Part shown: positions 34,891 to 52,790 of the stretch, piece by piece
How the letters are laid out: every line of letters starts with the position of its first letter
How positions within the stretch are numbered: the stretch's first letter is position 1
Source of the DNA: an uncultured Verrucomicrobiae bacterium
GTDB taxonomy: Bacteria > Verrucomicrobiota > Verrucomicrobiia > Chthoniobacterales > UBA10450
Direction of reading: 5' to 3'
Assembly (NCBI GenBank): GCA_963772365.1
Contig: CAVYXA010000001.1
Coordinates: 480,001 to 544,000 of the forward strand
DNA length: 64,000 nt
The notes under the pieces: model-generated
The model's input: the letters and a program-made list of their open reading frames with translations, nothing else
Told to the model about the DNA's origin: nothing
Database searches by the model: none
Program-made: the position numbers and the translations under genes

Positions 34891-35448
34891 TGTAGCGGCG
34901 GTCTATGACCGTCGCTCGAATTGCTAGAAGTTCGCTATTGTCTCGTGTGCCGGAACGTCTCCGCAGAGTCCATCGCCTCTTTTACCGAGTTCCAATCTAT
35001 TATGTGACTGCGTGCACCTTCATACGCCGATCGAATCTGAACAATGGTGCGGTTCACGCCCGCCTGTTTGAATTCAGTAACGCGGGTCCCCATCGTGGAG
35101 CATGGTTGGGTGCGTACGTGCTCATGCCGGATCACCTGCACGCATTTGTCGGAATGAATGACGAGCTATTGACGCTGTCCGAATGGATGAAGTCGCTGAA
35201 AAATGCTCTGTCGCAGACGCTGCGACTTCAAAAAATTCCATCACCGCACTGGCAGAAAGGGTTCTTCGATCACATCCTGCGTAGCGAAGAATCTTACGAC
35301 GAAAAGTGGAGTTACGTTCGCGAAAACCCCGTGCGTGCTGGATTAGTTGAGCAATGGGAGGAATGGCCATTCTTGGGTGAAGTATTCGATCTGGAGTTCC
35401 TGGATGATCTCAATTGATAAACTGCGACGGTCATAGACCGCCGCTACA
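34891..35448 (+). mobile_element. REP-flanked RAYT unit
   Basis: Perfect 25-bp inverted repeats TGTAGCGGCGGTCTATGACCGTCGC (34891-34915) and 35424-35448 around the transposase. Confidence 0.9.
34947..35417 (+). CDS. REP-associated tyrosine transposase (HUH/Y1)
   Basis: YYVT, MPDHLH, WQKGFFDHILR, YVRENPV motifs. Confidence 0.92.
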   Translation: MPERLRRVHRLFYRVPIYYVTACTFIRRSNLNNGAVHARLFEFSNAGPHRGAWLGAYVLMPDHLHAFVGMNDELLTLSEWMKSLKNALSQTLRLQKIPSPHWQKGFFDHILRSEESYDEKWSYVRENPVRAGLVEQWEEWPFLGEVFDLEFLDDLN

Positions 35449-48373: not shown

Positions 48374-49891
48374 CTAGTGCGGTTTCAGAACAACGAACGA
48401 ACGGGTCCGATGTCGACAAAGGGAAAGTACTTGTGGCTGGGCCGGATCGACCGAGCCGGCAATCTGGTTGTAATCTGCAACCGATTGGATCGGCTGTTGA
48501 TTAACTTCCTCAATGACGTCGCCCTTTTGCAATTCCGCCGCGCCGCTGTCAGGATCGACATCGGTGATGACGACGCCGTGCGCGTTGCCGGGTAAATCCA
48601 GCCGGCTCCTCAATTCTGGCGTTAAGTTGTCCACATGAATCGCTGCCAGCGGTCCGCTCGTCTCCGCTGGCCCTTCCTCTTCTTCCTGGTCGTTAGGTTG
48701 TTGAGGCTGACCTTGCTGTGGCGAACGTACCGCAGCCCGGAAATCGACCGGCTGTTCCTTGATTTGTGTATCCACTTTCATCGTCTTGCCATTTCGAACG
48801 ATTTGCAGCTCGATCTTCCTGTTTAGCTCGGCCTGGGCAACCAAGGTTCGAAGCTCGGGAAAACTTTTCACGTCATGCCCATCGAACTTCTGGATGATGT
48901 CGCCCGGTTTCAGATTCGCTTCGGCTGCCGGTGATCCGGGCAATACAGCGTTCACAACCACACCCTCATTATCAGCAGCGCCTCGCCCTGGTTGAACCGT
49001 TTGAATCCCGAGGTAACCCCGAATGATTCGCCCTTTTTTCAGCAAACTCTCGAGGGCCATGCGCACGGTATTGGATGGAATCGCAAAACCAATCCCCTGC
49101 GAGCCGCCGCTGCGCGAGATGATCGCGGTATTGATTCCGACTACTTCGCCGCGAAGATTGATCAGCGGTCCGCCACTGTTCCCAGGATTGATCGCCGCAT
49201 CGGTTTGCAACAAATCGCTGAAAATATCGGTACGGTTCGGTCGGCCTCGAGAGCTGATGATACCGTTGGTAACGGTCTCCTCGAATCCGAATGGATTGCC
49301 GATTGCCAGGACAATGTCGCCGGCTTGCACATCATCCGAATCGGCCAGCTTGAGCGGTTTCACTTCGGGATTGTCGATCTTGAGCACGGCGAGATCGAGT
49401 TCCGCATCCGCCCCTATCAGGCGTGCCTTCTTGGTGCGGCCATCGCTCAATTGCACCTCGATTTCGTCCACCTGATCCACCACGTGATTATTCGTTATGA
49501 TATGACCTTCCTTGGTTACAATCACCCCTGAGCCAAGCGAATTTTGAATTAACGCCTGCTCGCGCGGAGTTCGAAACTGGCCGCGATTGCCAAAGAAAAA
49601 TTCAAACGGATCCATCCCGTATTGTCGCCGGATTGCAATCTTCTTTGACGTCTTCACGGCGACCACCGAGGGAATCACACTTTTTACCAGGGCGCGTCTT
49701 TCCTGGTTGAGCGCTTCCAGAGAGGCAACTTGTTTGGGACTCACGTTTGGCTCGGTCGCCAGCGTATATTTTTCAGGCGTTCGATGACCTATCGGTCCGA
49801 GCTTTCCATTGTGGAGACGGTAATCGTAAAGAAGCGAGACGCCCGCGCTCACCAGCAGCACGAACAGAAGAAATTTGGCAAAGTTTTTCAT
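48374..49891 (-). CDS. HtrA/DegP-like serine protease with two PDZ domains
   Basis: TNNHVV, DLAVL, INPGNSGGPL motifs; coupled to recG by TAATG overlap. Confidence 0.93.
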   Translation of the reverse strand: MKNFAKFLLFVLLVSAGVSLLYDYRLHNGKLGPIGHRTPEKYTLATEPNVSPKQVASLEALNQERRALVKSVIPSVVAVKTSKKIAIRRQYGMDPFEFFFGNRGQFRTPREQALIQNSLGSGVIVTKEGHIITNNHVVDQVDEIEVQLSDGRTKKARLIGADAELDLAVLKIDNPEVKPLKLADSDDVQAGDIVLAIGNPFGFEETVTNGIISSRGRPNRTDIFSDLLQTDAAINPGNSGGPLINLRGEVVGINTAIISRSGGSQGIGFAIPSNTVRMALESLLKKGRIIRGYLGIQTVQPGRGAADNEGVVVNAVLPGSPAAEANLKPGDIIQKFDGHDVKSFPELRTLVAQAELNRKIELQIVRNGKTMKVDTQIKEQPVDFRAAVRSPQQGQPQQPNDQEEEEGPAETSGPLAAIHVDNLTPELRSRLDLPGNAHGVVITDVDPDSGAAELQKGDVIEEVNQQPIQSVADYNQIAGSVDPAQPQVLSLCRHRTRSFVVLKPH

Positions 49892-52581
49892 TAGCTAACC
49901 GTTGAGAAAGTTTTTCCCCCTCTTTCGACAATCAATTGGCGGAAACGTTGATTCTCTGGCAGTTCCAGATAAGGATCGATGGCGAAGATCGACATCGCTG
50001 CGCTCCGGGCTTTTCTCATGAGTTCCGCATCAGTTTTCAGGTTGCCGATCTTTAACGCCGGCAAACCGCTTTGGGCTGTGCCTAGCAAATCGCCCGGTCC
50101 GCGCAAGTCCCAGTCCGCTTCGGCCACTTCAAAACCGTTGCTGGTTTTTTCCAGCACGCCCAGCTTTTCCATTGTTTCCTCTGATTGATCCGAGGTTAAC
50201 AAAATGCAATACGATTTATGCTCGCCGCGGCCGATTCGACCCCGAAGTTGATGCAACTGGGCGAGCCCGAAACGCTCCGCGTTTTCCACAAGGATCACCG
50301 TAGCGTTTGGAACATCGACACCGACCTCGATTACGGTTGTGCTGATTAATGCGTGTGTTTCACCCCGGCGAAATCGCTCCATGATCTCCTGTTTCTCCGG
50401 GGCAACAATCCGGCCATGAAGCAATTCACAGCGAAACGGCTGCAATCGTTCCCGCCATGATTCATATTCCGCCGCGGCCGCTTTTGCGTCCAGCTTCTCG
50501 CTTTCTTCGATCAAAGGGTAAATCACGTAAAGTTGTCGCCCTGCTTCGAGCTGTTCTCGCAAAAAAGTCAAAATCTCAGGCAGTTTTAATCGGTCGCGAA
50601 TTGCCGTGACAATTTTTCCACGGTTCCGCGGCATTTCGTCGATCACCGAAACATCGAGATCGCCGTAAACCGTCATCGTTAATGTCCGCGGTATCGGCGT
50701 TGCCGTCATGACCAGGACATCCGGCGCCGGCTCCCGTTCCGTTAGTCGCGCCCGCTGCGCGACACCGAACTTGTGCTGTTCATCGATGACCACCAGCCCG
50801 AGATTCGAAAACACAACGCTTTCGTAAAGCAAAGCATGCGTGCCGACAATAATTTGCGGCTGGTCCACAGAAATCCGGGGAGCGCACGCTTGTAGCGTGC
50901 TGATCGCCGCATTCTGCGGCGACGAACTTTGATCCAGGCGCATCTCATCGTCAGGCGTCCAAACCCATGGATAATCTTCGCCTTGTCGAGCAACACCCGA
51001 ATCCCACGGATTCCGCAGGATGTACTGAAACTTCTCGACCAAATCACTGTCCGATCGAACGTAGCGATCGAACGTTTCTTTTTCCCAAACCGGACCCTGG
51101 TTTCCCTCCACTCGATTAATTTCGCGGGCGGAAAACGATTTTATTGACCTCATCAATTCGCTCAGCGACCAGAACGTCGTCTCGCCATCGATGGATTCGT
51201 CCTTCGGCCAGGGTTGAAATAGTGCGTGCACATGATCGGGCATGACACAGACGGCGAATAGTTCGTAACGCGAATTGTGAAAATGTCGCCACGCGTTCAG
51301 AACAAGCGTCCGCGCGTCCGCGTTCAATCTGCGTCGATGCCCAGTGGTGAAAGTAACTGCATAGATCGCCCACGGCTTTTCAAAATGTGGAAGACGCCTG
51401 CGCCCGTACCTCGCGCCGTCCGCTGATGGCCTCAAAGTTCGCGATGGCAGAATGCCATCACCAGCACGCTGCAAGCGTGCGCTCCCCGGCTCCCCGTGCG
51501 CAAACAACGGTAAGGGTCCGCTCTCCTCTTGGCGGGCAGCGGTCCGAAGCGCGATCCGGACGCCTAACGGTTCCAGCCAGCCCCGGAGCACGGAATAATG
51601 TTGCTCGGCCAGGATTTGTGTCGGCGCCATGAATGCGGCTTGATAGCCTGCTTCGATTGCAAGCAACATCGCTGCAATCGCGACTACGGTTTTGCCTGAA
51701 CCGACATCGCCCTGGAGCAGACGGTTCATGGGATGATTCGCAGCCAGATCATGCCGGATTTCCGCGATCACCTTTGATTGCGATCGCGTCAATTCGAATG
51801 GCAGCGCCCCAAGAAATTTCTCGAGAAGCACAGCGTTCCCACAATGCGCTTCGCCGGCTCGATTGGAAGATTCCGAGCGCCTTGCCGCGATCAGCATTTG
51901 CATGGCGAAGAATTCCGAGAGCACGAGATGCTCGCGCGCCTGGTCGCGCGCCTCCCAGGTTTGTGGAAAATGAATGGCTCGAAGCGAGGAAAGCCGGTCG
52001 CCCGTCGCGAGATTTTTCGGTAGTAACGTTTCCAGCGGCTGCTCGGAAAATTCGCTTAACAATTTGTAAATCATGCTGCGCAGGATTCGCTGCGAGAGAC
52101 CCTCCGTGGCGGGATAAATTGGAGTAATCCGTCGAAAATGGATCGACATCTCCGCGTCATCTTCGATTACCTCAAACTCCGGATGATCCATGCAAATCCG
52201 TTTCCCGCGCAGACGCGGCTTGCCGAAAACAACGAGCCGTTGCCCGGTCGCGATCATCTTCTGCACATAGTGGAGATTGAACCACCGGCAGACCAACGGT
52301 TCGCTTAGCACATGCGGATTCGATTCCTCAAGCGTGGCTTCGAAAATCTTTTTCCATCCGCCGAACCGGCGCAATGAAGTTTTGACGACCTCGCCGCAAA
52401 GACAAATGGGCCGGTCGCTTTCCTCACGCGGAAACTCATCGAACTGCTGTCGATCTTCCCAACGCCGCGGATAATGCGTGAGCAAATCTTCGACCGTCTC
52501 GATACCGAGCCGGCGAAGCGCCAGAAGCTTCGGACGCGCGATCCATTCGAGCGTTTCGAGTTTTTGTGAAATATCGATCAT
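49891..52581 (-). CDS. recG: ATP-dependent DNA helicase RecG with internal in-frame RAYT insertion
   Basis: QGDVGSGKT, APTQILAEQH, VGTHAL, DEQH, MTATPIPR, QLRGRIGR, LRGPGD motifs; about 205 extra residues between motifs Ia and Ib. Confidence 0.95.
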   Translation of the reverse strand: MIDISQKLETLEWIARPKLLALRRLGIETVEDLLTHYPRRWEDRQQFDEFPREESDRPICLCGEVVKTSLRRFGGWKKIFEATLEESNPHVLSEPLVCRWFNLHYVQKMIATGQRLVVFGKPRLRGKRICMDHPEFEVIEDDAEMSIHFRRITPIYPATEGLSQRILRSMIYKLLSEFSEQPLETLLPKNLATGDRLSSLRAIHFPQTWEARDQAREHLVLSEFFAMQMLIAARRSESSNRAGEAHCGNAVLLEKFLGALPFELTRSQSKVIAEIRHDLAANHPMNRLLQGDVGSGKTVVAIAAMLLAIEAGYQAAFMAPTQILAEQHYSVLRGWLEPLGVRIALRTAARQEESGPLPLFAHGEPGSARLQRAGDGILPSRTLRPSADGARYGRRRLPHFEKPWAIYAVTFTTGHRRRLNADARTLVLNAWRHFHNSRYELFAVCVMPDHVHALFQPWPKDESIDGETTFWSLSELMRSIKSFSAREINRVEGNQGPVWEKETFDRYVRSDSDLVEKFQYILRNPWDSGVARQGEDYPWVWTPDDEMRLDQSSSPQNAAISTLQACAPRISVDQPQIIVGTHALLYESVVFSNLGLVVIDEQHKFGVAQRARLTEREPAPDVLVMTATPIPRTLTMTVYGDLDVSVIDEMPRNRGKIVTAIRDRLKLPEILTFLREQLEAGRQLYVIYPLIEESEKLDAKAAAAEYESWRERLQPFRCELLHGRIVAPEKQEIMERFRRGETHALISTTVIEVGVDVPNATVILVENAERFGLAQLHQLRGRIGRGEHKSYCILLTSDQSEETMEKLGVLEKTSNGFEVAEADWDLRGPGDLLGTAQSGLPALKIGNLKTDAELMRKARSAAMSIFAIDPYLELPENQRFRQLIVERGGKTFSTVS
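50875..51489 (-). mobile_element. REP-flanked RAYT cassette inserted in frame in recG (615 bp)
   Basis: ~56-bp inverted double-hairpin repeats at 50875-50930 and 51434-51489; internal RRRLPH, YAVTF, MPDHVH, FDRYVR, YILRNP motifs. Confidence 0.92.
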
Positions 52582-52672
52582 CGACCAGTAGAACCCAACG
52601 GGCACCTACTACGAGCGCCCACGTGCGCACAAATTTCAGATTCGAATATCGTTTTCATCACTCGCGGTTCCC

Positions 52673-52790
52673 CGTCATGTCCGCCACGGCGGATTCGTCC
52701 GGTGGCGAATTGAGCGGAGCGAACCATCTCTCGCCATTATTCAACGCCCGAAGAAATGATTGAAGATTCTTCGCTCCGCTCAGAATGACA
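52673..52790. repeat. TGTCA-type repeat pair, left copy interrupted by two mini-hairpins
   Basis: CGTCATG[TCCGCCACGGCGGA TTCGTCCGGTGGCGAA]TTGAGCGGAGCGAACCATCTC ... AGATTCTTCGCTCCGCTCAGAATGACA. Confidence 0.7.

Follow-up and report, generated by a model that had tools for sequence, protein, structure and literature searches.

In-frame residence of a REP-RAYT cassette inside recG of a soil Verrucomicrobiae bacterium

The recG gene of an uncultured Verrucomicrobiae bacterium from soil carries, in frame and inside its coding sequence, a complete REP-RAYT cassette, that is, a REP-associated tyrosine transposase (RAYT) between two inverted repetitive extragenic palindromes (REPs). The gene lies in a stretch of 64,000 nt (contig CAVYXA010000001.1, positions 480,001 to 544,000; hereafter the window), and the genome to which it belongs, G000, is a six-contig draft that is 90% complete. 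The cassette lacks start and stop codons of its own, and the recG open reading frame (ORF) runs straight through it. Cassettes of the same RAYT lineage are nested in genes of other housekeeping proteins, among them the alanyl- and threonyl-tRNA synthetases (AlaRS and ThrRS), MetH and CarB. Quite probably, the element is a promoter-less REPtron (a RAYT gene flanked by inverted REPs), open from end to end, that is expressed as an internal domain of its host proteins and retained there. On the best reading of the data, it is not a functional fusion specific to RecG.

The cassette within the recG frame

The recG product contains the parts that define a RecG helicase, namely a wedge domain, two RecA-like helicase domains with their motifs, and the C-terminal domain 3. 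Nine Pfam matches in all were obtained on it, covering RecG_wedge, DEAD (split in two), Helicase_C and RecG_dom3_C, plus Y1_Tnp, and the columns of GSGKT, DEQH and TATPIPRT were found to be invariant in an alignment of 35 RecG sequences. The solved RecG of T. maritima (1gm5_A) aligns with an E-value of 2.4e-136 to residues 10-355 and 582-885, and an 18-residue loop of that protein (452-471) stands against 226 residues in the G000 product. From this loop comparison, and because RecG of the same-genus genome G001 reads PLPLFEEVEVPDACVTQSDQPHLIVGTHALL across the site, the insert is put at about 205 codons. It is flanked by the segment APTQILAEQH and by IIVGTHALL with its VGTHAL motif, which we take to be helicase motifs Ia and Ib, respectively, and it occupies a variable surface loop of helicase domain 1. 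The cassette can be bounded by GGGG..CCCC (50877-51487, 611 nt) or by CCGGGG..CCCCGG (50875-51489, 615 nt), and homologues elsewhere usually cover residues 1-205 of the insert, both REP-coded ends included. The coordinates of the features are given in Table 1.

Table 1. Features of the cassette-bearing recG locus, in window positions
Feature	Position	Strand	Remarks
recG	49891..52605	minus	single 904-codon ORF including the cassette; Pfam domains, 1gm5_A alignment
Whole cassette	50875..51489	minus	615 nt, 205 codons, REP-RAYT-REP, open end to end
Upstream REP (5' in the recG sense)	51426..51491	minus	model R1, 70.6 bits, E 5.8e-16
RAYT (TnpA-REP) catalytic core	50956..51399	minus	RecG residues ~403-550; NF047646, 4er8_A, invariant catalytic residues
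Downstream REP, inverted	50873..50938	plus (GTAG-type strand)	model R1, 71.5 bits, E 3.5e-16

An earlier reading of these letters, made from the sequence only, had proposed a complete cassette in frame inside recG, with intact HUH/Y1 motifs, with inverted double-hairpin repeats translated as linkers at its ends, and with covariation between the second hairpins. Each of these proposals is borne out: a single 904-aa ORF joins the RecG domains and Y1_Tnp, the motif strings MPDHVH and YILRNP are present in it, the repeats translate as had been noted, and the covariation proved to be real and general. That reading had also suggested that an alignment of RecG from related bacteria would give both the empty allele and the exact junction. 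Empty alleles were indeed found, but the junction could not be fixed to the base, because the flanks of the loop have diverged and are different in every genome; the relatives' loci were also compared for a target motif, and none was found.

The insert is identified as a RAYT by its sequence and by its predicted fold. The curated RAYT equivalog of NCBIfam, NF047646.1, matches with 88.4 bits (cut-off 80) from position 4 to position 145 of its 146, and it is also matched by all 36 aligned homologues at E-values up to 0.001. Pfam Y1_Tnp matches at aa 439-510 of the recG product with 25.7 bits and, when scored together with the homologues, with 29.6 bits, in both cases against a cut-off of 23; 35 of the 36 homologues match it as well. 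The HUH histidines H458 and H460 are encoded at 51226-51234 and the catalytic Tyr528 at 51022-51024. In the numbering of the insert, H86, H88, Y156 and N160 were invariant in 36/36 homologues, catalytic histidines and tyrosine among them. A PDB search with the 36-sequence profile gave E. coli TnpA-REP (4er8_A) at the top, with an E-value of 0.0011 and an alignment running through the HUH and Tyr motifs; a single-sequence phmmer search of the insert against PDB gave nothing relevant, its sole match being ThiS at E 0.42. In the AlphaFold model of the 205-residue insert, the mean predicted local distance difference test score (pLDDT) is 80.3, with most of the core above 90, and Foldseek again placed 4er8_A first (E 6.2e-6, probability 1.00, 158 columns, template modelling score 0.60 on the target), followed by the TnpA proteins of IS200, IS608 and ISDra2. 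In a model of full-length RecG, RecG and RAYT are predicted as separate confident domains. Residues 364-407 and 551-579, which are the two REP-coded linkers, are predicted to be disordered (pLDDT below 50), and the isolated and full-length models agree in this.

Selection on the two parts of the cassette was compared by the raw Nei-Gojobori proportions of non-synonymous (pN) and synonymous (pS) differences in nine pairs, as the Jukes-Cantor correction fails with pS saturated in most of them. The RAYT core gave pN of 0.09-0.22 against pS of 0.60-0.83, and the RecG flanks gave pN of 0.08-0.19 against pS of 0.62-0.73. Purifying selection at the protein level is thus as strong on the transposase core as on RecG. 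In the REP-coded stretches of seven clade-A pairs (the clades are described below), pS was observed to be 0.06-0.44 and roughly equal to pN. This low pS near pN at the ends, together with pN far below pS in the core, indicates that the ends are selected as nucleic acid and the core as protein.

The REP ends show the same constraint in their pairing. The upstream REP has the head GGGGAGCGC, in which the GTAG head is mutated to GGAG, then a first hairpin GCACGC-TTGCA-GCGTGC and a second hairpin GTGATGGCA-TTC-TGCCATCGC, followed by CGAACTTT; its translation is GSARLQRAGDGILPSRTL. The downstream REP consists of GCACGC-TTGTA-GCGTGC and TCGCCGCA-TTC-TGCGGCGA, and its minus strand is translated as SSSPQNAAISTLQACAP. 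Measured as inverted arms (50866-50932 and 51432-51498), the two ends are 67 nt long and 78% complementary. Alignment of 28 arms, taken from ten clade-A cassettes and from dispersed copies in G000, gave the consensus YY-GGGTAGCGCACGCG-TCT-CGCGTGCTGG-CGACGGCG-TCC-CGCCGTCGCG-AACTT, which is that of a GTAG-type REP with a compensated palindrome, the cassette subfamily having the head GGAG. Over these arms 98.2% of the cells are paired in the two-hairpin structure, and compensatory change was found in 11 of 16 pairs, among which are all nine of hairpin 2. The pairing score was reached in none of 500 shuffles, and no slid register came close to it. The GTAG-bearing strand has 16 G-T wobble cells and one A-C cell, in upstream and downstream arms alike, although the GTAG strand of the downstream arm is antisense to recG. 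This asymmetry points to single-stranded DNA (ssDNA) on both strands, rather than mRNA, as the form under selection. The REP ends are therefore constrained as DNA hairpins on the GTAG strand and not as peptide.

Other host genes and turnover at the recG site

The 205 residues of the insert were searched against 300 genomes of the order, 301 with G000. A match at an E-value up to 1e-10 was found in 117 of the 301 genomes, G000 counted. At E-values up to 4e-41 there were 85 rows, of which 80, one of them from the unpublished G008, lie in stop-free frames of 646-1522 aa; the other five are in frames of 219-274 aa. Pfam typing of the hosts of 29 ORFs gave RecG in eight, ThrRS in eight, AlaRS in six, MetH in two (at two different sites) and CarB in two, and three were free-standing. 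Among public proteins, at least 1178 long ones match the insert at E-values up to 1e-20. The best 120 of these are mostly RecG proteins of about 900 aa, with 73-80% identity to the insert, from more than 100 independent assemblies. Such proteins carry the JGI label 'RecG-like helicase/REP element-mobilizing transposase RayT', and their NCBI taxa are in part Verrucomicrobia or Candidatus Udaeobacter.

On the tree of RAYT sequences, one origin each suffices for the ThrRS and CarB copies, AlaRS and MetH require two each, and RecG requires two or more. About ten insertion events would explain the 33 nested copies placed on the tree, which suggests that new insertions are rare. As a separate observation, four proteins, P0002 and P0010 (MetH, 1648 and 1654 aa) and P0003 and P0004 (AlaRS, 1388 aa), extend about 200 aa beyond the single-cassette versions and score above the expectation from their identity; they may contain two cassettes each.

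At the recG site, a cassette was found in 8 of 40 relatives; these carriers represent six further genera within the family and two families besides, and their cassettes come from at least two RAYT lineages. Altogether 38 RecG loci were examined, a set enriched in carriers since some loci came from the insert search. A full cassette was present in 15 of them, always at the same position; one (G012) has an in-frame REP doublet without a transposase, one (G001) has a scar, and in 21 nothing is recognisable. G001 belongs to the same genus as G000, and the two RecG proteins are 84% identical over 670 kept alignment columns. Its scar is the 16-nt GACGCGTGTGTTACCC, two mismatches from the outer REP end; it is the sole such match in 4 kb, and 0/200 shuffles gave a match. 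A close homologue of the cassette RAYT was sought throughout G001 and none was found, the best match having 38% identity. The scar implies that the ancestor of the genus carried a cassette and that G001 lost it by in-frame deletion.

A tree of 36 RAYT cores places the RecG-borne copies in at least two well-separated lineages. Clade A comprises the copies of G000, G217, G019, G313, G087, G238, G017 and G305, together with free-standing copies of G004 and G010. Clade B comprises those of G016, G005, G004 and G015 and adjoins a MetH copy, and three further RecG-borne rows stand apart from both clades. A single clade of all 15 RecG-borne RAYTs was rejected by the approximately unbiased test (p 8e-7, and p 1e-4 with two free copies added), the test group having been set by host gene when the tree had already been seen. 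On a quickly searched tree of the RecG hosts, from which the insert columns were removed, G000 groups with G001 (SH-aLRT support 99), G004 (clade B) with G087 (clade A; 99), and the empty G010 falls within G305/G217 (clade A; 97). Judged from these two trees, the cassette states are interleaved on the host tree, and two RAYT lineages alternate at one site within one family.

A probable relocation is seen in G010, in which recG is empty and the cassette is sister to the RecG-borne copy of its congener G305 (99/87). This cassette (locus L044, G010:C139, 1483-2133) is a 216-aa ORF that exactly fills the gap between two GspE/PilB-like ATPase genes in tandem. The ATG overlaps the stop codon that precedes it, and on the other side there is an overlap with the start of the following gene, as if the cassette were translationally coupled in an operon. 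The case reads most simply as a relocation from recG into an operon gap, where there is no room for a promoter of its own either. With regard to G004, its free-standing clade-A cassette (locus L042, G004:C11) was observed to have a REP doublet directly upstream, at 2193-2350, with arms nearly identical to those of the cassette. Since the recG of G004 holds a clade-B cassette, two RAYT lineages coexist in that genome.

How the cassette may persist, and the alternatives

In the proposed mechanism, RecG would be made as a protein of about 900 aa, in which a monomeric RAYT domain is held on two disordered REP-coded linkers. The tethered RAYT would bind and cut single-stranded REPs and in this way sustain the small family of dispersed REP doublets (REPINs) of the genome, and the host gene would lend its expression to the cassette. 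Only precise or in-frame deletions could remove the cassette without damage to the host gene, which would protect it and allow it to persist. Long vertical residence with occasional loss, swap and relocation would then account for the distribution beyond the rare insertions. Passages of Messing 2012 (PMC3479197; PDB 4ER8) describe the TnpA-REP of E. coli as monomeric, with base-specific recognition of the 5' GTAG and cleavage at CT. The monomeric state makes operation as a passenger domain plausible. An autoinhibition of E. coli TnpA-REP has also been described.

A wider proposal, toward which we lean with less assurance than toward the reading of the cassette itself, is that a Verrucomicrobiota REP-RAYT lineage without promoter, start or stop exists solely in translated form, as an inner domain of essential proteins, so that the REPIN-maintaining enzyme would be, for example, RecG itself with a tethered HUH nuclease. 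If this is true, selfish DNA would have a third mode of life in essential genes, in addition to those of inteins and self-splicing introns. The permanence of single-copy RAYTs would be explained as well, as they would be hidden in genes that cannot be deleted.

The alternative that survives best, although we regard it as improbable, is a domesticated fusion, in which the RAYT was recruited to RecG, for instance for nicking or holding hairpin ssDNA at stalled forks, and the 900-aa protein is selected for repair. RecG works at sites of exposed ssDNA, purifying selection acts on the RAYT core, and the saturation of pS between genera shows the cassette to be old at the recG site. RAYTs are, moreover, described in parts of PMC5581495 as generally behaving like vertically inherited housekeeping genes. 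A role at forks is, however, difficult to reconcile with the nesting of the same lineage in AlaRS, ThrRS, MetH and CarB, which are unrelated to forks. Nor does it sit well with the 21 of 38 RecG loci that lack any trace of the cassette, close kin included, with the one scar and the one REP doublet besides, or with the alternation of two RAYT lineages at the site within one family. The linkers are predicted to be disordered, and no fixed interface is predicted. The sequence-only reading had offered two possibilities, a RecG-RAYT fusion for fork remodelling and a mobile domain without splicing that survives by landing in frame where loops of conserved proteins tolerate it. The former is disfavoured here, given tRNA synthetases and metabolic enzymes among the hosts and many close relatives without the insert. 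The latter is upheld by the range of hosts, by the lack of an intein domain or intron RNA, by the predicted disorder of the linkers, and by the loss, scar, REP-only remnant and swaps at the site.

Still less probable is an insert that is removed before RecG works, whether by RNA processing at the inverted repeat, by an unknown form of protein splicing or proteolysis, or by frequent precise excision of the DNA, leaving a working RecG of 700 aa. The 67-nt arms, with their 78% complementarity, could pair as a long stem in mRNA, enzymes of the IS200/IS605 type excise seamlessly, and relatives have clean empty sites, G010 even combining an empty recG with a sister cassette elsewhere. An Rfam scan of 49800-52700, however, found no group I or group II intron and no ribozyme family; its two matches were both far below the gathering scores, the one nearer to significance being Ysr141 (26.7 bits; gathering score 196) and the other a snoRNA of nematodes. 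No intein or Hint family is among the nine Pfam matches, and the junctions ...HGEP/GSARL... and ...ACAPR/ISVD... vary among relatives instead of having conserved Cys/Ser/Thr or His-Asn residues. There would be no need for an insert removed as RNA to remain open, but of the 85 strongest homologues 80 lie without stops in long frames, and the wobble pattern of the hairpins favours ssDNA on both strands over mRNA.

It is very unlikely that the insert is a dead relic, decaying in a recG that is dispensable or has become a pseudogene, or that it stems from a chimeric assembly, even though the REP heads have drifted from GTAG to GGAG and the genome is an incomplete draft, because pN is far below pS in both RecG flanks and RAYT core, the RAYT has kept its catalytic residues, the helicase motifs do not vary among the 35 aligned sequences, only one recG was found, and the same architecture recurs in 8/40 relatives and in more than 100 independent public assemblies at 73-80% identity. 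The sequence-only reading had named three findings that would speak against a genuine insert, and none of them was made: recurrence in independent assemblies contradicts a misassembly, 80 of the 85 strongest homologues lie in open frames rather than out of frame in pseudogenes, and no separate intact recG was found beside this one in the 90% complete genome, where the RecG wedge domain has a single match, in the cassette-bearing gene.

Several points weigh against residence of a promoter-less REPtron as the explanation. The RecG-RAYT protein of about 900 aa is predicted solely from the ORF; among public sequencing runs, one DNA run with 0.05 of the sampled words and no RNA run were listed. The GTAG sequence as a whole is described as crucial for cleavage in E. 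coli in a passage of PMC3479197. Both REPs of the cassette have GGAG, and this copy could therefore be weakened or retargeted. Long vertical residence also fits a domesticated role that benefits the host. In G001, which lacks this RAYT, at least 60 REP matches remain, and the REP population is therefore not linked to it exclusively. The compared loci gave neither a base-exact junction nor a target motif. The host tree comes from a quick search and has SH-aLRT support only, and saturation of synonymous sites leaves dN/dS uncorrected and transfers undatable. Finally, a preference of REP doublets for frame-preserving lengths is unproven; such lengths were seen in 5/5 doublets of the cassette subfamily, but the other nine split 3, 4 and 2 over the three length classes, and shared ancestry may explain the 5/5.

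Dispersed REPs and known elements

The REP covariance model gave 39 matches in G000, most of them in convergent doublets. In five relatives at least 57-107 copies were found, these counts being lower bounds, as 150 candidates were scored per genome. The REPs of G000 form two subfamilies, one with the common GTAG head and the other with the derived GGAG head and an ATTCT loop. The latter consists of both cassette arms and four doublets, and GGAG is present on both arms and on 7/8 doublet arms. One of its doublets lies in frame in a DnaE2-like polymerase gene (G000:C3:270641-270750) and is translated in the same frame as in RecG. At this dnaE2 site, other REP doublets are present in G001 and G015, and none in G007, G004, G005, G002 or the unpublished G003 and G008. 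The sharing of the derived head suggests that these doublets spread, or were homogenised, while served by this RAYT. Three other doublets (C3:554681, C6:96690 and C1:1051610) were considered as in-frame cases and rejected, as each lies at the 5' edge of a frame, probably before the true start. The DnaE2-like gene itself (G000:C3:267897-271187, locus L099, outside the window) was observed to contain a second stretch of about 33 aa, PLPSSSLWPGRGGPASARLRLGKREAPVRVSE, that is missing from five aligned relatives and looks like an older REP remnant.

RAYT genes flanked by inverted REPs, such as that of E. coli TnpA-REP, are known as REPtrons; a paper by Nunvar (2010, PMC2817692) reportedly deals with them. 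The recG cassette belongs to the same enzyme family, by the curated hidden Markov model and by fold, and shares with REPtrons a transposase between inverted GTAG-type REPs and the dispersal of the same REP family in the genome as REPINs. It differs in that known REPtrons are free-standing genes in extragenic DNA, with a start and a stop of their own, whereas the recG cassette has neither, its REPs lie inside the frame, and all of it forms an inner segment of a housekeeping protein, as is also the case for 80 of the 85 strongest homologues. Its REP is, in addition, a double hairpin with a GGAG head.

IStrons of Clostridioides are group I introns fused to IS200/IS605-type genes; they escape by RNA splicing and need no frame. 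Like them, the cassette is an element of the IS200/IS605 superfamily inside a gene that is not destroyed; unlike them, the recG insert is kept open, and no intron RNA was found in the Rfam scan. The likeness to inteins with homing endonucleases goes further: both are selfish, enzyme-coding, in-frame inserts in housekeeping proteins, with a patchy distribution, lineages that alternate at a site, and expression that depends on the host. The cassette, however, has no Hint or splicing domain and no conserved junction residues, and its enzyme is an HUH ssDNA transposase instead of a homing endonuclease. As no splicing part is present, the host protein must tolerate the extra domain permanently.

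Passages of Di Nocera 2013 (PMC3733652) describe REPs in frame in genes for DNA replication and repair, DnaE2 among them, also mention Opitutus terrae, a verrucomicrobium, and cite the Rickettsia palindromic elements. As in those cases, palindromes are translated here as extra loops of functional genes, and the DnaE2-like gene of G000 is a further instance. The elements described there are non-coding and tens of bases long, whereas the 615-nt insert is the transposase itself with both REPs and is selected as an enzyme. In the parts of the TnpA-Y1 census of Quentin 2018 (PMC6006769) that bear on this, REPs are reported in frame within tnpA-REP genes, and unexpectedly long proteins, met in each subclass, were discarded as gene fusions or annotation errors. 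Our literature search found no description of a housekeeping gene with a complete RAYT cassette nested in its frame, although the supplements of PMC6006769 may list such proteins. REPtrons, REPINs and in-frame REPs are thus already known, and what is described here is a new way of life for a known element. To these the present locus adds RecG as a host, a scar in the same genus, a REP-only remnant, the rejection of a single origin, relocation to an operon gap, the split between protein and DNA constraint, and the strand-asymmetric wobble.

RAYTs are described in parts of PMC5581495 as single-copy and vertically inherited, and their long-term maintenance is called difficult to explain. Residence in frame in housekeeping genes is a concrete and testable explanation of it. 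If this explanation is true, inteins, self-splicing introns and short in-frame palindromes would be joined by a non-splicing case, in which the host protein simply has an enzyme of about 150 aa as its passenger. From the insertion sites, loops of RecG, AlaRS, ThrRS, MetH and CarB can be named into which an entire additional domain fits, and this is of use in protein engineering. With full cassette, swap, REP-only doublet, scar and empty allele side by side, the recG site offers a system for the origin of REPINs from REPtrons. There is also a consequence for annotation and for censuses: composite RecG/RayT labels are already being emitted, and long RAYT proteins were discarded in the census as far as its relevant passages describe.

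Some minor observations concern other REPs and transposases of the genome. A free-standing Y1/HUH transposase-like gene in the window (34905-35417, plus strand, 170 aa), in which REP covariance model R1 found no flanking REPs, encodes LMPDHLHAF and YVRENPV and is a distant relative of the recG cassette. Two identical 67-nt REPs (G000:C1:1727520-1727586 and G000:C3:397505-397571) lie near the two strongest other Y1_Tnp matches, in frames of 350 and 310 aa, which suggests a recently duplicated REP-transposase unit of another kind. Lastly, a convergent REP pair was found with its members 3.6 kb apart (G000:C1:387185-387250, plus strand, and 390790-390873, minus strand), the second having an 18-nt insertion between its hairpins.

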